In this document: piece by piece, positions 8,757 to 28,725 of the stretch | Position numbering within the stretch: the stretch's first letter is position 1 | Layout of the letters: the number at the start of each line of letters is the position of its first letter | From: a virus | Taxonomy: Duplodnaviria; Heunggongvirae; Uroviricota; Caudoviricetes | DNA: 33,981 nt | Virus record (IMG/VR): IMGVR_UViG_2563366983_000010 | Direction: 5' to 3' (one strand) | The notes under the pieces: generated by a model | The model's input: the letters and a program-made list of their open reading frames with translations, nothing else | The model's database searches: none | Told to the model about the DNA's origin: nothing | Position numbers and translations under genes: made by a program

Positions 8757-9817
8757 GTGGCCACCGCCTTTGTTTTCTTCGTCTTCGCTTTCATTTCCGG
8801 CATGTCCAGTGATTCAGGCGGAACCAGCGCCAGAACCGTCATCCGCCCCTGTGCGCCATCCGTCCAGGTCACCCCGGATATCAGCCAGGTGGTTTTCAGG
8901 TTCTGAATGCTGTCGTCGATATCGACAAGGCGATTGGTCTGCCACAGCGGGCCGCTGTCGCCCTGTTCGCGCCAGCCTGCCACCGTGATTTCCGTCGTGC
9001 GGGATTCCCCCAGCATCCGGGCTTTGTACCATTCCCCGCGAATGCTGGCCCCGCCCACGGTCAGGCTGTCTTCATTGACCAGAATGCGCGGGCGGTAACG
9101 GTTAATTTCCGGGTCTTCGGTGATGTACTGGCGACCGCCCACCATCGAGGCAGGCTGGCTGTCCCACAGTTTGCCACCGGCACTGGTGGTGCCTTTGATG
9201 ATGTACTGGCTGTTACGCTCCCGCCAGCTGAAGCGTCCACGGGCGGCGAGGATATTTTTCCCCAGCACCAGTGACACACCCGCGCGAACGGAAGAGGCGC
9301 GGGTGATAATCAGGTTACCTGCGCCGTCAGACGTCAGCAGAACGCCGCGCTGTTTTGCCAGCCGGTCGAGCAGTTCAAAACCCGTTTCACCCTGTTCCAG
9401 AACGACAGACGCAAACGCCTCCCCGGTCGGGGTTTCCGTAATGACGGTTATCCCGAACGGGCAGCAGACATCAGCCGCCACCTGTTCAAGCCGCACGCCT
9501 TTCCATTTCCCGGACGAATGCACCACAGAGCAGTCAACCAGGTCGCCGGTTTTGTCGCGCCCCATGACGCGAATCTCCACGTTATCTGCGTCATAGCTGG
9601 GGATAAAATCATCGATATACCCCGTCAGCACGGTATCCGCGCCCAGCCTGACCGTGCAGGGTTGCCCCTCACGAATCACGCGCGGTGCCGCCGCCGACCA
9701 GCGGGTTGTCACACTGAGATCAAACTCACCGGCAATCGCCTTCAGGGAACGGCTGATGGACATTTCCGTCCAGCCTTCCCACAATTTGCCGTCAACGGTA
9801 AGAATCACGGATTCCAT
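8747..9817 (-). CDS. Tail/baseplate hub protein (Mu P-like, gpD-like)
   Basis: 356 aa; start is ATGA-coupled to the upstream N-like gene. Confidence 0.6.
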   Translation of the reverse strand: MESVILTVDGKLWEGWTEMSISRSLKAIAGEFDLSVTTRWSAAAPRVIREGQPCTVRLGADTVLTGYIDDFIPSYDADNVEIRVMGRDKTGDLVDCSVVHSSGKWKGVRLEQVAADVCCPFGITVITETPTGEAFASVVLEQGETGFELLDRLAKQRGVLLTSDGAGNLIITRASSVRAGVSLVLGKNILAARGRFSWRERNSQYIIKGTTSAGGKLWDSQPASMVGGRQYITEDPEINRYRPRILVNEDSLTVGGASIRGEWYKARMLGESRTTEITVAGWREQGDSGPLWQTNRLVDIDDSIQNLKTTWLISGVTWTDGAQGRMTVLALVPPESLDMPEMKAKTKKTKAVATWD

Positions 9818-17327: not shown

Positions 17328-17398
17328 GACTCTGCCTTTTGAAAGGCAGTTAAAAGGGCATTCACAACGCCTTTTAACTGCAATTTACGGATGACGGG

Positions 17399-18301
17399 TT
17401 ATGCCGGGGTGGTGATGAACGGACTGACCACGATGTCCACATCCTTGTACCAGATGTTGGAATCGCCGCCGTTTACCAGCATGGCGTCAATGATGCGCTT
17501 CGCAGCCGCGCGATTTTTCGGTCCCACCACAAGGGTGGTCGGGCGGATGCCCAGCGGTTCACCGTTGGTGGCCTTCATACCCAGCAGCAGATTACTGGCG
17601 CTCTCGTAGTTCTCCGCTGTCAGTGCCGCACGGGAACCGACGGCGGTTTGCCAGAAGCCGAATCCTGCATTACAGCGACCGTCCACCCCGTACAGGAACT
17701 CGTTATTCTTGAAGGTGTGCTCGCTGTTCAGATCGTCCAGGGCTTCAAACTTAAAGGCGCGTCGCGTCTGCCAGATGATGGGTTTCAGTACCTGAGAATC
17801 ATCAATCAGAAACCACGGTTCCCCCTGGTCTGATGCCGGGGTGCCGACAACGTTGCTGTATGTGCCGTCGCCCAGCGGGTGGTCTTCATCAAAGAAGTTC
17901 TGACCGTCAAAACACAGGGTGTTAAACCCGGCACACAGCAGGGGGTAACACAGCTTGTCCGGGAACTCTGACGTCTGGCGGCCATAGCGTTCAGCGATAA
18001 TGCTGTACTGACCAATCTGATCGTCTTCAATGTGTTCGCGTTTAACGCGGATCGAACTTTCCCAGGTTTTGTTCGCAAGGGTGTAACCATAACCGTCCAG
18101 CGTTGCCATCTGACGGGCGCTGACCCATTCTTTAATCTCCGGTAAATCTTTCATCCAGCCGTAGGTATTGGAAGCGGACGAACTCGGGATTTCAGAGGCG
18201 ATGCGCTGCCACTGTGGGGTAACACCACTCAGACCACGGGTATAAGCGGCGCTCAGGCAGGTGGTCAGCGCGTGAAGGACTTCGGAAGTGACTGCTCCCA
18301 T
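17399..18301 (-). CDS. Major capsid protein (Mu T-like)
   Basis: 300 aa, immediately downstream of the protease/scaffold gene (ATGA overlap). Confidence 0.8.
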   Translation of the reverse strand: MGAVTSEVLHALTTCLSAAYTRGLSGVTPQWQRIASEIPSSSASNTYGWMKDLPEIKEWVSARQMATLDGYGYTLANKTWESSIRVKREHIEDDQIGQYSIIAERYGRQTSEFPDKLCYPLLCAGFNTLCFDGQNFFDEDHPLGDGTYSNVVGTPASDQGEPWFLIDDSQVLKPIIWQTRRAFKFEALDDLNSEHTFKNNEFLYGVDGRCNAGFGFWQTAVGSRAALTAENYESASNLLLGMKATNGEPLGIRPTTLVVGPKNRAAAKRIIDAMLVNGGDSNIWYKDVDIVVSPFITTPA

Positions 18302-19263
18302 CAGTTATTCTCCTGTTTCGGTTTAGCGGCGAGGAACTCTTCCCCGGTAATACCCATGCTGCGGCACATCGCCAGTTCGGCGTCGGTCAGTGTCTGCGCG
18401 GGTTTATCCTTGCCCTGGCTGGGCTTGTCGTTGTTCACCAGCGGCTGTGCACCTCTGGTGTATTCCGCAAACTGTTTGCGGCCTTCTTCCGTGCGGCAGG
18501 TGGCAAGGAACATGTCACGGTTTGCCGGGGCCACTTTTCCGGCTTCGATGGCCGCATCCACAAGCGCTTCTGCTTCCTTAGCTTCCAGTTGCTGAAGGCG
18601 TTGTTCTGCGGTTTCTGCACGGTTCAGTGCCAGATTGTGGGTTTCCACCGGCACAAACTTCGTCAGGTCAGGTGTCTGTGCGCGGTTCAGCGCCACCTGT
18701 TCGCTCTCCTGAAGTTGTTTAATGGCGGCCACGGTATCGTCCACCGTGGCGGATTCAGCCAGCCCAAGCAGGCCGGTGATTTGCACAGGTACTGTCATCG
18801 GGTTTTTCTCCGTATTCAGTGCAGGAAAATCCAGGTTAGGTTTGTTGGTCAGCCCGACGCTGGACAGGCGCGTCACCACACCCTCCGCGTCATGGAAAAA
18901 CGCCGGGCTGTAATAGCGATAGCGGCGCTCGCTCAGCATCCACCTGGCGGATTCACTCCAGACAACACGCCCTTCAATGATGCCGTTGTCCGTCACCCGC
19001 AGTTCTTCCACCCAGCCATACGCCGGGGCTTCATCACCGCGTTGCCCTTTAATTTCGGTGGCGTGTTCAATGTCCACCGGAATTTTGATGTCGGACGAGC
19101 GGGTGACCACCTCATGCGGATTGCGGTTAATCCACGTCCGGCCATCGCGCCCGGTGAACTCACCCGCAGGGACGAGTTCAAGCCATTCCGGCAGTTGAGC
19201 GGGTGTCAGCTCAGGGATGGGTTCTGGCAGGGAAAAACACAGCGCCAGCAGTTCCGGTTGCAT
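18301..19263 (-). CDS. Head maturation protease / scaffold (Mu I-like)
   Basis: 320 aa; first gene after the F-I intergenic region; ATG at 19261-19263 with GGAG RBS. Confidence 0.75.
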   Translation of the reverse strand: MQPELLALCFSLPEPIPELTPAQLPEWLELVPAGEFTGRDGRTWINRNPHEVVTRSSDIKIPVDIEHATEIKGQRGDEAPAYGWVEELRVTDNGIIEGRVVWSESARWMLSERRYRYYSPAFFHDAEGVVTRLSSVGLTNKPNLDFPALNTEKNPMTVPVQITGLLGLAESATVDDTVAAIKQLQESEQVALNRAQTPDLTKFVPVETHNLALNRAETAEQRLQQLEAKEAEALVDAAIEAGKVAPANRDMFLATCRTEEGRKQFAEYTRGAQPLVNNDKPSQGKDKPAQTLTDAELAMCRSMGITGEEFLAAKPKQENN

Positions 19264-19312
19264 GTCAGTCTCCGTCGTTTGGGGTTACCGACGGTCAGTA
19301 TGCGGAAGGCAG

Positions 19313-19338
19313 AAAAAAAGCCGGATTTACCGGCTTCA
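19313..19338 (-). terminator. Intrinsic-terminator-like hairpin plus U-run (GAAGCCGG-TAAAT-CCGGCTTTTTTT); copy 1 of a duplicated element
   Basis: Minus strand reads TGAAGCCGGTAAATCCGGCTTTTTTT, identical over 26 bp to 26879-26904. Confidence 0.5.
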
Positions 19339-19476
19339 CTGAAAACGGGAAAATACCCCCTTCAAAACCCCTTCAAAAACGCCACAGCATCTTCAAAAAC
19401 GTCAGAATGCACATTCACGCCATCAGAATAAAAAACGCGTTTCTGATGCGTTTCAGGGGGATTTGCGGCGGGAGGG

Positions 19477-20241
19477 TTACTCTCTGTCAAAACGGGCCTG
19501 TTTTGTCGCCAGCTGGCGCGCCAGCGCCTGCTCACGGTTTATGCCGGGATTGTAGTTCCAGCCCGGATCAATCCCTTCCGGCACCTCTTCCTCTTCGCCC
19601 GTGCGTTTGTTCACCCAGCGGACAGTTCTGATTTCCGGCGCTTCGGTGTGAATGGTGCCCTGTGCCGCCAGTTGCGCATATTCACCACGGCTGACCTGAC
19701 GGATGGTGCATTTGCAGCCCCAGCCGTTAGGGGCGAAATGTGTCAGCCAGAACGGATGATCAACCGGCAGACACAGACGTGCCCATTTCACATGCTCCGC
19801 CCGGTGCTCGCGGGATGGTCCCAGCTCGTAAATCAGATACGGCATGGCCCGCTTTGTCCGCTGGATGCGTTCCCACTGGCCCGCCGCGCGGGCGGTGCGC
19901 ATGTTGGTATCAAAAATCGTGCGGAGGCGGCGGTCGCTGCCCAGTTGCACGGTGCGGGTTTCGCCCGTCAGCGGATCATCCATCTCCTGTACGCCCCACC
20001 ATCCGCGTTTTATCAGCAGCGGTTGCAGCGCCTCCCGGAACTCGCTGAACGTCTGTCCGCTTTGCAGGGCGTCTTCCACAAGGGCTTTCACATCCGACAA
20101 CAAATCCAGTTGCAGCATTTTTGCCACGGTGAAGCTGTTCCGGTGTTCTTCCCGCCACACATCCCGGTAATCAAAACCGGGGCGCAGCTTCTTCGCCTTC
20201 AGCCACGCCAGCGCCTCTTTCGGGATGAGGGTTTCACGCAT
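19477..20241 (-). CDS. Head morphogenesis / minor head protein (Mu F-like)
   Basis: Start chosen at Met20 of ORF 19477..20298 (GGGGGA RBS, minimal overlap with the portal stop). Confidence 0.65.
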   Translation of the reverse strand: MRETLIPKEALAWLKAKKLRPGFDYRDVWREEHRNSFTVAKMLQLDLLSDVKALVEDALQSGQTFSEFREALQPLLIKRGWWGVQEMDDPLTGETRTVQLGSDRRLRTIFDTNMRTARAAGQWERIQRTKRAMPYLIYELGPSREHRAEHVKWARLCLPVDHPFWLTHFAPNGWGCKCTIRQVSRGEYAQLAAQGTIHTEAPEIRTVRWVNKRTGEEEEVPEGIDPGWNYNPGINREQALARQLATKQARFDRE

Positions 20242-21805
20242 GGCCGGTGTCCCCCAGCGCACGCGCCTTAAAGCACACCTCCGCCAGTTGCAGGGCAAAG
20301 TCGTCCGCGTTCAGCGTTTCCTGAAGCTCAGGCAGACGTTTCAGAAAGTCATCAAAACTGTCGCATTCCTGCGCCAGTGTCAGCACCGGGTTTGTGAACG
20401 CCTCGCCGGTTTTCTGCCAGTCACGCAGGGCATCATCCACCATCTGAGCCAGTTCGTCGGGGTGTTCCCGGTTCAGGGCGACGCGCTCGCGGTTCATCGC
20501 CATTTCACCTGACATTCCGGCAGAAACCGGATGCAGAACATCAGCCCCTTCGTCCGGTTCCGCCAGGCCGAACCGATCCCGCAGCTCCGATTCCTGAACC
20601 CGCATCCCCCGGTCAATCAGTGGCACCAGAGCATCAGTCAGCGCCTTCAGATCTTCGGCTTCACTGATACGCAGAACAACACGGGGATAGTGCGCCTGTG
20701 GCCCGTAGTTGGCCTCGATGTAGGGACGCACCAGATATTCATTCAGCGTGTTAGCCAGCTGTCGCGCGTCCCAGCGCACAATGTCCATGCGCACCTGATT
20801 GTGCACGTCCGCCTGTGAACGCGAACTGCCGTTATCTGTGGTCATGGTCTGCCCCAGTACGGCTTTACTGATTTGCGCATCGCACCATTCCGCCATTTCA
20901 CGGAACAGTGCGCCGCCGTTATTCCGGCTGGCGGTTTCCTTCATTTCCAGTTGCATGGACTGCGGAATGGCACACCCGGCATCCGAGGCAATGGAAGCAA
21001 TCGCATCAATCAGCACGCGGATTTGCTCCTCCGTGGCGTTGGGGCCGTATTTCCCCACTGTAACCGGAATGCCGAACTTTTCCGCAAATGCCCACCAGTC
21101 GCGCACGGTAAAGGATTTCAGCATGTACATCACCGCCACCAGACGGGCCAGACCGTTACGCAGCGGCAGACCGGATTTCAGGCGCGGCTGGTGAACAATG
21201 AATTTTCCCGGTGTCAGCGGTACGCCATCCACCGGTTCATCGTCAGTCAGCAGGCGGAACTGGCGCAGCGTGGTTTTTTCGGCTTTCAGAAAACGGGGAT
21301 CAACCCACTCATAATCACGGGGAATCCAGTGGTTTTTGTGGGTATTCCAGAGGATTTCACAGACCGCCACGCCTTTTCCCAGCCCGTCGAGCAAATCAAA
21401 CATCAGTTCGGGGATTTGCGGGGCTTCCATCAGTGCACGGATGGCGTCCGCCAGTTGCACGTCAGCATCGTCATCACTGGCGGCCACCACCACCGGTTCG
21501 ATACCCGCCACCGTCAGCTTGCGGGTGCGCAGCACCGAGGCGTAATGCAAATCACGTTCTTCCATCTCTTCGGCAAGGATAAAAAAATCACGCGTGATGC
21601 CGTCGGCGGCATTGCGCAGAATGCCTGCCAGCCTGCCGGGATTCAGCCCGGAAGCAATGCTGATGCCCGGCGAGGCCGAACGTACGCCAGCCTGACGCGG
21701 GCGGGCCTGTGCTTCATTGAGCGTCTCTTTTTTCAGGGTGTCGCCCTCACCGGTTGTCGGGTTCAGCAAATGACGAACATCCCCGGTCTGTTGTTTCAGG
21801 TTCAC
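20234..21805 (-). CDS. Portal protein (Mu H / gp29-like)
   Basis: 523 aa directly downstream of the terminase large subunit; apparent GTG start overlapping the terminase stop. Confidence 0.75.
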   Translation of the reverse strand: MNLKQQTGDVRHLLNPTTGEGDTLKKETLNEAQARPRQAGVRSASPGISIASGLNPGRLAGILRNAADGITRDFFILAEEMEERDLHYASVLRTRKLTVAGIEPVVVAASDDDADVQLADAIRALMEAPQIPELMFDLLDGLGKGVAVCEILWNTHKNHWIPRDYEWVDPRFLKAEKTTLRQFRLLTDDEPVDGVPLTPGKFIVHQPRLKSGLPLRNGLARLVAVMYMLKSFTVRDWWAFAEKFGIPVTVGKYGPNATEEQIRVLIDAIASIASDAGCAIPQSMQLEMKETASRNNGGALFREMAEWCDAQISKAVLGQTMTTDNGSSRSQADVHNQVRMDIVRWDARQLANTLNEYLVRPYIEANYGPQAHYPRVVLRISEAEDLKALTDALVPLIDRGMRVQESELRDRFGLAEPDEGADVLHPVSAGMSGEMAMNRERVALNREHPDELAQMVDDALRDWQKTGEAFTNPVLTLAQECDSFDDFLKRLPELQETLNADDFALQLAEVCFKARALGDTGHA

Positions 21806-26235: not shown

Positions 26236-26823
26236 TCACCCCCGCGTGGTGGACGGCGCGTTGTCGATGATTTCCAGACAGGCGTCGGTCAGTTTTTCCA
26301 TGCGGTTAAACCAGCCATTCAGGTATTTGCCCTGGGCGGGTTTGGATTTGATGATTTCGGCATAAAAGCGGGAACGACGGACAATGCAGCGGGTCAGCAA
26401 CCAGTCCGGGGTGGACAGGCTCACGGCCTTACGGGTACGCGGGCCGATGATGCCGTCAGCATCCACATCAGTGGCTTCCTGCAAAATTTTGATAGCTTTT
26501 TTAACGCCATGCTGAACCGCCGCATCGAACACAAACATCGCCACGCCATCAGGCCACTGGTCACATCCGGCAGGCAGCCAGTAATCGCGCCAGTAAATCT
26601 GCGCAACCTGTTCGCGGGTTAAATCCTTAATGCGGGTGTCGGGTTTACCATCGCCGTTGACATCGGTTTTGCCGTCAATCACACCGTCGCGGCGGTCAGA
26701 AATGCCGTATTTGGTTTCGCCGCCACGGTCTGTGGGGTCATTGACATAGACGCCTTCGATATCAGGACGCAGAATAAAATTCAGCGCATGTTCAAAGGCC
26801 GGAGAGAATTTTTGATTTTCCAT
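26236..26823 (-). CDS. Endolysin, GH108-like lysozyme domain with C-terminal peptidoglycan-binding domain
   Basis: N-terminal EGVYVNDPTDRGGETKYGIS motif typical of glycoside hydrolase family 108; C-terminal DGIIGPRTRKAV motif typical of PG_binding_3. No signal peptide or SAR segment. Confidence 0.75.
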   Translation of the reverse strand: MENQKFSPAFEHALNFILRPDIEGVYVNDPTDRGGETKYGISDRRDGVIDGKTDVNGDGKPDTRIKDLTREQVAQIYWRDYWLPAGCDQWPDGVAMFVFDAAVQHGVKKAIKILQEATDVDADGIIGPRTRKAVSLSTPDWLLTRCIVRRSRFYAEIIKSKPAQGKYLNGWFNRMEKLTDACLEIIDNAPSTTRG

Positions 26824-26878
26824 AAAAGCACCTGTGAAGCAGAGTTAAACGTGGTCTGCTTCATAGTGCCGGAGGCAC

Positions 26879-26904
26879 AAAAAAAGCCGGATTTACCGGC
26901 TTCA
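26879..26904 (-). terminator. Intrinsic-terminator-like hairpin plus U-run; copy 2 of the duplicated element
   Basis: Identical 26 bp to 19313-19338; lies 20 nt after the stop of the 159-aa secreted-protein gene and 55 nt before the endolysin ATG. Confidence 0.55.
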
Positions 26905-26923
26905 TTGAATTAAGGGAAGATAA

Positions 26924-27403
26924 CTACTCATCTCCTTTGATGGAGCAATCTATTACCATATCGTTACCCATCTTGAGAAATTTGGTTTGCATGAGAAAAC
27001 CCTGTATCACGTCAGTTAACCCATACCCTTCAACTTTTGTAGCTGAAACTACCATGTCAATAATTCGTTTCTGCTGCTTCTCTGTTAGTTCACCAATTGC
27101 TGACTCTGCAACCCGCGAGCATGCTACAAAGGAAGACAACACACCTGAAGGATTGTTTTCAAAATCCTTTACAGTCGTCCTTGAGCTGACGACTTTATTA
27201 TTGATCGTAAATACCCCGAATTTGCTGTGAGCAGTTTCAGTTCCACCGTTCTTAATAGAATCGCCTCCCTTAAGAGGCATCCAGCTATTTAGTGCAATGA
27301 AATCTTTTTCTGTCAGACGTTTTTTGATGACATCTTCAGCTGGCAACTTTGCCGCATTAGCGCAAAATACGCTCAGTAAAAGTATAAGAGGAAAGTATTT
27401 CAT
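26924..27403 (-). CDS. Secreted/periplasmic protein with cleavable signal peptide, unknown function (159 aa)
   Basis: N-terminus MKYFPLILLLSVFCANA-AKLP is a classic Sec signal peptide. ATG overlaps the stop of the Mor-family gene (ATGA); AT-rich relative to neighbours; followed by the terminator hairpin. Confidence 0.6.
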   Translation of the reverse strand: MKYFPLILLLSVFCANAAKLPAEDVIKKRLTEKDFIALNSWMPLKGGDSIKNGGTETAHSKFGVFTINNKVVSSRTTVKDFENNPSGVLSSFVACSRVAESAIGELTEKQQKRIIDMVVSATKVEGYGLTDVIQGFLMQTKFLKMGNDMVIDCSIKGDE

Positions 27404-27810
27404 GACTCATCCTTAAACAGTTGCATTTGATATTTTCCACGCTCCAGCCTTCGCATTCTTTTGATAGCTTGATATACCGTTTTGTATGTCACTTTGTAAC
27501 GCTGCACCAGTTCCGCTACGTTTTTCCCATCAAAATCACGCCAGATGCGCATGTCTCTGATAAGATTTTCCAGTATTTTCCCTTTAGGAACATATACCTG
27601 AATCCCACCGATATGATTACAAATCGCCACTACCAACTCAAGGGAATAGACCGGGTTAACCCCAAGCCTTATCAGTTCCTGTCGCAACAGAGCATTCAGC
27701 TCTGAAAGTAGCGCCGGATAAACATATTTTTCCTGATAATCGTGAAGATATTCCAGAACGGTGTCGTCCCGGAAGTCTTCGAATAAATCCTGCTCTTTCA
27801 TCTGTTTCAT
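27400..27810 (-). CDS. mor: Mor/C-family transcription activator (middle/late gene activator)
   Basis: 136 aa with C-terminal helix-turn-helix (NVAELVQRYKVTYKTVYQAIKRMRRL); ATGA-coupled to gemA as mor is in Mu. Whether it acts as Mor, C, or both cannot be decided from sequence. Confidence 0.7.
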   Translation of the reverse strand: MKQMKEQDLFEDFRDDTVLEYLHDYQEKYVYPALLSELNALLRQELIRLGVNPVYSLELVVAICNHIGGIQVYVPKGKILENLIRDMRIWRDFDGKNVAELVQRYKVTYKTVYQAIKRMRRLERGKYQMQLFKDES

Positions 27811-28358
27811 ACAGCAATTCTCCCGCTGTTTCGTGCGCGGGCATACGCACTGGTCAGTGCATCATAGCCGCGCAGCTCCCGACCGGTTTCGCTCACAGGT
27901 AAAGGCACACCATGTCGGGCAAAGGCTTCACGGATGCAGCGCATATGCCACTGTTTGAGCGTTTCGAGCACAACCTGCAACGATTCCCCGTGACACCAGG
28001 CCAGTGTGGAAACCCCCTGACCGCCATTACGTCTGGCCGTCAGGCGCTCAACGTATTTGTCCAGCGCGGCGTCGCTGATATCGGAAACGAAACCATCAAG
28101 GAACATCTGCTGCCAGATTTTGTAAATCTTCTCGCGTGGTGTGACATGCCCCTTAAAGCGACGGCGGGGATGTTTTTTCTGCTTCTTAAAACCGCGCTTT
28201 TTCATGGCATCGAGCACTTGTTCCAGTTGTGCAACGGACAGCTCGCGGCAACTGGTTTTGCCCGTGCACTGCACCAGAAAAGCTCGGTAAGTGTCATCGT
28301 CGAGTTGCAACTCCCGACGGGCAACATGAATTAATTTAATCAGGGATGTGCGGCTCAT
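27807..28358 (-). CDS. gemA: GemA-like early protein (Mu gp16 family)
   Basis: Start at Met16 of ORF 27807..28403 (MSRTSLIKLIHVARRELQLDDDTYRAF), AAGGAG RBS; sits directly upstream of the Mor-family gene. Confidence 0.65.
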   Translation of the reverse strand: MSRTSLIKLIHVARRELQLDDDTYRAFLVQCTGKTSCRELSVAQLEQVLDAMKKRGFKKQKKHPRRRFKGHVTPREKIYKIWQQMFLDGFVSDISDAALDKYVERLTARRNGGQGVSTLAWCHGESLQVVLETLKQWHMRCIREAFARHGVPLPVSETGRELRGYDALTSAYARARNSGRIAV

Positions 28359-28725
28359 TATGTCCCATCTCCTTAATGCAGTGTTTTTCGACCCATGCCA
28401 CACGAGCAGAATTCAGGTGACATCTGCCAAGTCTGCATTCCTCATGATAGTGCGCTCTACTTTCATTGAAAGGTAATAATTCATCCAACTCGTTCGCGAT
28501 AAAATCTGCACGTAATTGTTCTAATATATCTTCGGTATCCACTCCGATTTCGTCAAAATAACGACAAGCATTTGCACATAATCCTGAATATTGAACAAAT
28601 ATTTCACCCTCTGTTTCTGGTGCACCATTTTTTAACCACTGGTTATAGGCAACATAAAAATCATAAAGATGTTTTCTGGTGCTGGCGGATGTGGATTTAA
28701 TTTCATTTTTCTCTGCGTTATTCAT
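28336..28725 (-). CDS. Hypothetical early protein, Cys/His-rich C-terminus (129 aa)
   Basis: Start at Met12 of ORF 28336..28758 with AAGAGG RBS at 9-nt spacing; C-terminal HYHEECRLGRCH...HC could bind metal. Confidence 0.45.
   Translation of the reverse strand: MNNAEKNEIKSTSASTRKHLYDFYVAYNQWLKNGAPETEGEIFVQYSGLCANACRYFDEIGVDTEDILEQLRADFIANELDELLPFNESRAHYHEECRLGRCHLNSARVAWVEKHCIKEMGHNEPHIPD

Follow-up and report, generated by a model that had tools for sequence, protein, structure and literature searches.

Each of the two copies of a short repeated element in a Mu-like prophage of E. coli is most probably (at roughly 80%, judged from homology, gene context and conservation) a module of the phage Mu Pm type, in which a Mor-dependent promoter overlaps an intrinsic terminator, with a possible fold-back layer in the leader. 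The window, that is, the whole stretch of 33,981 nucleotides that was analyzed, is one such prophage with all genes on the minus strand, 95-97% identical to prophages of 46 complete E. coli genomes. The original prediction regarded the element as a terminator fused to an activator-dependent late promoter, a description supported by the homology to Mu Pm, which includes the Mor dyad, the -10 hexamer and the placement of the terminator inside the promoter. The promoter type is already known from Mu; the instances described here are unannotated. At these places no promoter is annotated in the E. coli records in which the element occurs, and no description of these promoters was found in the literature searched.

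The repeated element and its gene context

The duplication of the element is confirmed. Plus-strand positions 19295-19338 and 26861-26904 read as first reported, with 26 of 26 positions identical in the core and 12 of 18 in the adjoining nucleotides. A repeat search of the window pairs 19301-19343 with 26867-26909 (family D5, 91% identity over 43 nt). With up to three mismatches allowed, the window contains exactly two occurrences of the 26-mer AAAAAAAGCCGGATTTACCGGCTTCA, against 0.00 expected from 100 shuffles. A profile HMM built from 39 distinct elements of relatives gives two significant matches in the window (E = 6e-15 and 7e-15), two in Klebsiella phage Kp4866-3 and one in Mu. No additional full copy is found in the window by mismatch scans or by the profile HMM, whose best extra match on the coding strand is at 8392-8372 (E = 0.08-0.2). 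Rfam families are absent across the entire window.

On the minus (coding) strand, both copies contain the GC hairpin and T7 previously described, and are called terminator-like: the stem has eight pairs, five of them GC, the loop has five nucleotides and the fold reaches -12.6 kcal/mol (z = -4.5). The predicted intrinsic terminator of copy 1 covers 19313-19337 (stem 19337-19330/19324-19317, loop 19329-19325, T7 19319-19313) and that of copy 2 covers 26879-26903 (stem 26903-26896/26890-26883, loop 26895-26891, T7 26885-26879). The box that follows lies 31 nt before the start codon in copy 1 (ATG 19263) and 37 nt before it in copy 2 (ATG 26823), within the 30-37 nt originally proposed. The box motif TGCCTYCSGCAY alone is not enriched in the window (25 matches at up to two mismatches versus 23.7 expected) and was dropped as a separate motif.

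Copy 2 is placed between the end of an early gene block and the lysis genes. The block contains gemA (27807-28403, minus strand) and, directly downstream, mor (27400-27810, minus; Pfam PF08765 Mor, E = 3.9e-29), followed by a 159-aa open reading frame (26924-27403, minus) that overlaps the mor stop codon (ATGA). Copy 2 begins 21 nt past the stop of this frame and precedes the GH108 endolysin gene (26236-26823, minus; Pfam PF05838, E = 1e-23, and PF09374), the first gene of the lysis/packaging operon. The 159-aa product has no Pfam or PADLOC match and corresponds to one PHROG of unknown function. The slot between mor and copy 2 holds variable cargo, and in relatives mor either abuts the element or is followed by a different insert.

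Copy 1 begins 140 nt past the stop of a Mu F-like head morphogenesis gene (19477-20298, minus; Pfam PF04233, E = 8e-14). It precedes the Mu I-type head protease gene (18301-19263, minus; Pfam PF10123, E = 1.4e-44), which is the first gene of the head/tail operon and is followed by the major head gene. The two copies occupy, before the endolysin gene and before protease I, the positions of the Mu late promoters Plys and PI.

In relatives, where the original prediction had proposed to look, about 150 instances were found, all of them in the mor-to-endolysin or the F-to-protease I context. A small dispersed repeat, such as a mobile hairpin of the REP or MITE kind inserted at two sites of the prophage, could explain the short length, the palindrome and the recurrence of the element. 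However, of 5,426 E. coli genomes, none contains the element apart from the 46 with the prophage, and in these it is found at two places in each prophage and nowhere else. The viral contigs always show one of the two fixed gene contexts, and neither target duplications nor flanking repeats are found. The probability of such an origin is close to nil.

Homology to the phage Mu promoter Pm

In Mu Pm, the Mor dyad extends from -51 to -36 and the Mor footprint from -56 to -33/-36, a -10 hexamer is present and a -35 hexamer is not, and the dyad is composed of two 5-bp arms with a G/C-rich hexanucleotide between them (PMC4287176, PMC4390567). The Mu numbering was checked with primer JM6 and Table 3 of PMC4390567, where positions -57 to -52 read GTAAAC and are followed by AGTA; the Mor site is therefore AGTAA-AGCCGG-TTAAT. 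Both copies align to Pm without gaps (Pm, ...cAGTAAAGCCGGTTAATCCGGCTTTTTTTacgtcctcaaTATCCTgtgatgaA; copy 1, cAGTGAAGCCGGTAAATCCGGCTTTTTTTctgccttccgCATACTgaccgtcG; copy 2, cAATGAAGCCGGTAAATCCGGCTTTTTTTgtgcctccggCACTATgaagcagA). At the predicted positions -51 to -36, copy 1 contains the Mor-type 16-bp dyad AGTGA-AGCCGG-TAAAT (19325-19340, minus) and copy 2 contains AATGA-AGCCGG-TAAAT (26891-26906, minus), which are identical to the Mu dyad AGTAAAGCCGGTTAAT at 13 and 12 of 16 positions, respectively, in ungapped alignment. The dyad spacer AGCCGG is the same in both copies and in Mu, and the 28-nt core AGTAAAGCCGGTTAATCCGGCTTTTTTT differs from that of Mu by 2-3 bases only.

The resemblance continues downstream. 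The hexamers CATACT (copy 1) and CACTAT (copy 2) occupy positions 11-16 after the T-run, the same offset as the TATCCT of Mu, and the conserved box is not an activator box but corresponds to the promoter spacer plus this -10 hexamer. In copy 1 the box covers 19289-19312 (minus), with the spacer CTGCCTTCCG at 19312-19303 and CATACT at 19302-19297. In copy 2 it covers 26855-26878 (minus), with the spacer GTGCCTCCGG at 26878-26869 and CACTAT at 26868-26863. Since the hexamers coincide exactly with the position of TATCCT, transfer of the Mu +1 places the predicted starts at approximately 19289 and 26855. Only 3-4 of the 6 positions in the hexamers agree with TATAAT, and the -35 region of both copies consists of CCGGCT and the T-run, with no -35 hexamer. 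The equal spacing to a weak -10 hexamer and the missing -35 element are thus common to Pm and to both copies, as are an upstream A/T-rich stretch with C at -52, a location downstream of a Mor gene that comes after gemA, and a leader predicted to mask the ribosome-binding site in read-through RNA.

The terminator is also part of the Mu arrangement. The GenBank record of Mu contains a predicted terminator (9179-9200) inside Pm (9163-9233), as well as terminators directly before the late promoters Plys and PI. The hairpin inside Pm presumably terminates early transcription in Mu, as assumed from its TransTermHP annotation and from the terminator called 't9.2'.

Several differences separate the copies from Pm. 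Mu has a single Pm, which drives the middle operon encoding C, whereas the window prophage has two copies, which would act directly on the lysis/packaging and head/tail operons. The half-sites are AGTGA or AATGA and TAAAT, in place of AGTAA and TTAAT in Mu; the left one in particular deviates, and the symmetry of the dyad is weak. In addition, a variable cargo gene separates mor from the element in the window prophage.

The Mu promoters Plys and PI, which depend on C, share with the copies the genomic positions and the layout of a terminator followed by a promoter. The homology is visible in sequence for PI: the spacer and -10 region of copy 1 correspond to it (CCGCATACTGAC versus CCGCAAACTGAC), and the copy 1 stretch CTTCCGCATACTGAC aligns with CTCCCGCAAACTGAC of PI, whose CAAACT is at the -10 of the annotated late promoter. 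On the other hand, the terminator and the promoter are about 25 bp apart in Mu PI and overlap here, and the activator site is of the Mor type here and of the C type in Mu. The C site is taken to be TTAT-N6-ATAA, as in Mu Pmom ATTATGCCCCAATAA. A C-dependent late promoter of the Mu kind was ruled out, given the Mor-type dyad and the lack of a C gene in the window prophage.

A single activator gene of the Mor type

The original prediction invoked a protein of the Mor/C family. Of this family, a Mor orthologue is encoded in the window, and C is absent by tblastn. The window Mor (136 aa) shares 59% identity with Mu Mor and 32% with Mu C. A tblastn search of the window with Mu C matches only the mor gene (31% identity). 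The window and 27 related loci each contain one Mor/C gene, of the Mor type, and tblastn detects no second one in any of them; among the loci compared, Mor and C occur together only in Mu. It is therefore supported, from gene content and from the type of the dyad, that the activator acting on both elements would be the Mor orthologue and not C.

Promoter calling returns no match to the sigma-70 consensus on the coding strand of the window, so the late genes must depend on promoters of the activator type. The presence of Mor in a prophage that lacks C implies that the three-tier cascade of Mu (early, Mor, C, late) would collapse to two tiers, by reuse of the Pm design at the late operons.

Conservation of the predicted activator site and decay of the predicted terminator

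Three sets of relatives were collected: viral contigs encoding a Mor 79-100% identical to that of the window; genomes of Pluralibacter, Klebsiella, Raoultella, Brenneria and Serratia (Mor 60-64%) together with Klebsiella phage Kp4866-3; and 98 stretches from an exact-pattern scan of viral contigs. The element is present in all of the relatives collected. A blastn search of the element against isolated phages returned only a spurious 30-nt match in Klebsiella phage Soft, and with this short low-complexity query even Mu was missed.

The two positions evolve differently. Before the endolysin gene, the hairpin and U7 CCGGCTTTTTTT are invariant in every copy found. Before the protease gene, 8 of 13 diverged lineages, among them Klebsiella, Raoultella and Pluralibacter, have a weakened or missing terminator half, with losses in the U-run and in part of the 3' arm. 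The degraded 3' arms read CCGGT, CCACT, CTACT or CCACC, and the U-run is replaced by TTTCTTCT or TATCCCC. The 16-bp dyad is kept in all protease-side copies, followed at equal spacing (within 1 nt) by an nAnnnT hexamer. The A at position 2 and the T at position 6 of this hexamer are retained in nearly all of 51 distinct relatives. A comparison of 21 distinct 28-mers shows no variation at columns A1, A5, A6, C9, G10, G11, T12, A14, A15, T16, C17 and T22, nearly all of them within the dyad.

This pattern bears on the earlier suggestion that the palindrome GCCGG-N5-CCGGC is itself the activator site. The suggestion is not upheld, as the 3' arm decays in protease-side relatives and 16 bp remain fixed. 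Instead, a predicted activator site of 16 bp, made up of 5-6 bases upstream of the hairpin, the hairpin 5' arm and the loop, is supported by the conservation.

The same pattern weighs on the view that the elements are intrinsic terminators only, duplicated or homogenized by recombination, with the late genes reached by read-through or by an unrecognized promoter. Both copies do have canonical terminator anatomy, and gene conversion could account for the 26-nt identity. However, the loss of the U-run and part of the 3' arm with retention of dyad and hexamer, in 8 of the 13 protease-side lineages, is the opposite of what this view predicts. The colinearity of the element with an experimentally defined promoter, Mu Pm, and the lack of any other promoter candidate on the coding strand also speak against it. 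The base at -50 argues in the same direction: it is G before the protease gene and A before the endolysin gene, and this copy-specific difference is stable across lineages whose Mor is 63-100% identical to the window Mor. The persistence of these bases indicates two old copies that are maintained separately and not freshly converted, and suggests that each has long evolved on its own under selection. In 13 of 14 distinct genome pairs, both copies have an identical right half-site variant (TAAAT or TTAAT), which fits a common activator and would also be produced by gene conversion. Overall, a terminator without a promoter is very improbable.

The converse view, in which only an activator-dependent promoter exists and the hairpin is a by-product of a symmetric protein site that does not terminate, is somewhat less improbable and still unlikely. 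The hairpin overlaps the activator site, and Mor and C are reported to bind as centrosymmetric tetramers over nearly three helical turns (preprint, bioRxiv 10.1101/2025.05.02.651988). Moreover, the stem is paired in 88% of cells, with double changes at two positions, even among copies without a U-run, so that the potential to form a hairpin decays slowly and not abruptly. Against this view, the combination of an 8-bp stem of -12.6 kcal/mol and an adjoining U7 where an operon ends is typical of an intrinsic terminator, the endolysin-side stem and U7 are invariant in every relative, and the Mu dyad, as defined by mutation and footprinting, ends at -36 and does not include the 3' arm (PMC4287176).

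The module that combines promoter and terminator is, in this respect, dissected naturally by the relatives. The hairpin and U7 are invariant after the early operon, where a terminator would be needed; where the terminator would be optional, the hairpin and U-run decay and the activator site persists. Two functions carried by the same bases are in this way separated.

Predicted leader structure and the ribosome-binding site

A hairpin of variable sequence starts directly after the -10 hexamer in every lineage. In copy 2, the predicted leader structure (26824-26870, minus) contains an inner hairpin (26863-26835) and an outer helix (GGCACT 26870-26865/GGTGCT 26832-26827), which covers the Shine-Dalgarno sequence AGGTG (26833-26829) ahead of the endolysin ATG at 26823. 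The minimum free energy of this leader is -19.4 kcal/mol (z = -3.6). In copy 1, the leader hairpin (19264-19294, minus; CCGTCG 19294-19289/CGACGG 19277-19272) overlaps the Shine-Dalgarno sequence GGAGA (19273-19269) ahead of the protease ATG at 19263. The first 10 nt past the U-run in endolysin-side copies have their complement in the region of the Shine-Dalgarno sequence and start codon, for example ATGCCTGC/GCAGGCAT and GGCAC/GTGCC. Compensatory variants are found between lineages, GGCA/TGCC versus GGAA/TTCC, as well as ATGCCTGC/GCAGGCAT. In two viral contigs (L033, at about 8215-8233, and L037, at about 8375-8393), an inverted sequence resembling a Mor site, GGAAACCGGTTAATCCGGT, lies on the opposite strand in the endolysin-side leader hairpin.

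As the pairing register differs between lineages, no single covariation model applies, and an accessibility calculation with shuffled controls was used instead. Accessibility is expressed as the free-energy cost of making a 16-nt ribosome-binding window single-stranded, in 30 diverged representatives that include Mu Pm. The mean cost is 13.5 kcal/mol in read-through RNA, 4.7 kcal/mol in RNA that begins at the predicted +1 and 6.1 kcal/mol in read-through RNA with the 23 nt before +1 shuffled. The read-through cost is the highest in all 30 representatives (Wilcoxon p = 2e-9), which are phylogenetically related. The cost drops once the 5' end passes positions 17-19 after the U-run. For copy 2, a 5' end at position 1, 5 or about 24 past the U-run gives 7.9, 14.3 or about 4.3 kcal/mol, respectively; for copy 1, the cost is 9.9 kcal/mol at position 1 and 2.9 from the predicted start. 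The read-through values of the window copies, 9.3 and 10.3 kcal/mol, fall in the upper range of those of 39 other prophage genes (6.5 +/- 2.4, maximum 13.4) and are not extreme.

These calculations make fold-back masking of the ribosome-binding site in read-through transcripts a plausible additional layer. A stronger proposal is that the box acts as a safety catch: throughout the family, Mu Pm included, selection would keep the 18-23 nt between U-run and start complementary to the ribosome-binding site of the operon's first gene, so that endolysin and protease would be translated only from RNA initiated at the activator-dependent promoter. This proposal is tentative, at somewhat under even odds. 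If it is true, transcripts that leak through from the early operon or the cargo gene would be translationally silent, and an activator site, a terminator and an anti-ribosome-binding-site segment over the core promoter would overlap within about 75 bp. The predicted occlusion of the endolysin ribosome-binding site would provide a mechanism against premature lysis, testable also in Mu, where the start is known.

A parallel is found in IS10/Tn10, for which Davis, Simons and Kleckner reportedly described in 1985 a fold-back inhibition of transposase translation in read-through transcripts. In both cases the ribosome-binding site has its complement in a segment that directly precedes the element's own start, and only transcripts initiated outside would contain the masking segment. 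The present case differs in being predicted only, in its location behind a terminator in a phage late operon, and in pairing partners that vary between lineages.

Proposed mode of action

In the proposed mechanism, the binding of Mor, the transcription starts, the termination and the fold-back are transferred from Mu or predicted from sequence. The 16-bp imperfect dyad A-R-K-G-A/A-R-S-C-G-G/T-W-A-A-T, centered at about -43.5, would bind the single Mor of the prophage. Mor would then recruit sigma-70 RNA polymerase to the weak -10 hexamer (CATACT or CACTAT) that lacks a -35 partner, and transcription would start at about 19289 in copy 1 and 26855 in copy 2. On the other hand, RNA made by polymerases arriving from upstream would fold into the 8-bp GC-rich hairpin followed by U7, an intrinsic terminator composed of the GC-rich spacer of the dyad, the right half-site as loop and the complementary CCGGC. 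At copy 2 this terminator would end the early operon (mor and the 159-aa cargo frame), and at copy 1 it would end the lysis/packaging operon after gene F.

In RNA from polymerases that pass the terminator, the segment of 18-23 nt that separates the U-run from the start would pair with the region of the Shine-Dalgarno sequence and start codon and hide the ribosome-binding site. Mor-dependent transcripts would not contain this segment and would hence be translatable. Promoters of the Pm type would in this manner take the positions of Mu Plys and PI, and the element would be present twice because a prophage without C drives both the lysis/packaging and the head/tail operons directly from Mor. This reading would supply late promoters for a widespread family of Mu-like prophages, whose hosts include E. 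coli (with STEC and ETEC strains), Klebsiella, Raoultella, Pluralibacter, Brenneria and Serratia.

Further features of the prophage

Mismatch scans and the profile HMM give no convincing Mor-type site upstream of com/mom. The region upstream of com (2879-3015, minus) contains a perfect inverted repeat with GATC, CGATCGATA-N6-TATCGATCG, reminiscent of the Dam/OxyR control region in Mu mom. A third site of the Mor type, AGGGAAAACGGTAAAT, may lie at 8373-8388 (minus) inside a gp45-like baseplate gene (8220-8756). Its score is marginal (nhmmer E = 0.08-0.2). The sequence TATTAT lies downstream (8344-8349) at the spacing of the protease-side copies, and the synonymous positions GGG, GTA/GTT and AAT of the site do not vary among 21 distinct relatives, whose protein identity goes down to about 60%. 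The candidate could be a functional analogue of Mu PP, which is likewise inside a gene. With no convincing site at com/mom and a marginal one in the tail region, Mor as the sole late activator is not fully accounted for.

Two intergenic regions have further features. Between F and I, units resembling GTTTTTGAAG recur upstream of copy 1 (about 19345-19400, minus), and the sequence GTTTTTGAAGATGCTGTGGCGTTTTTGAAGGGG of this intergenic region aligns with Mu TTTTTAAAACGCGCCACGGGATTTTTAAACCGG, around the annotated strong gyrase cut site. From this alignment, the region probably corresponds by homology to the central strong gyrase site of Mu. After the major head gene, a 71-nt gap (17328-17398, minus) contains a weak terminator-like hairpin (17371-17357) at the position of the terminator predicted after gene T in Mu. 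It may be an attenuator that raises the expression of the capsid gene relative to the genes downstream.
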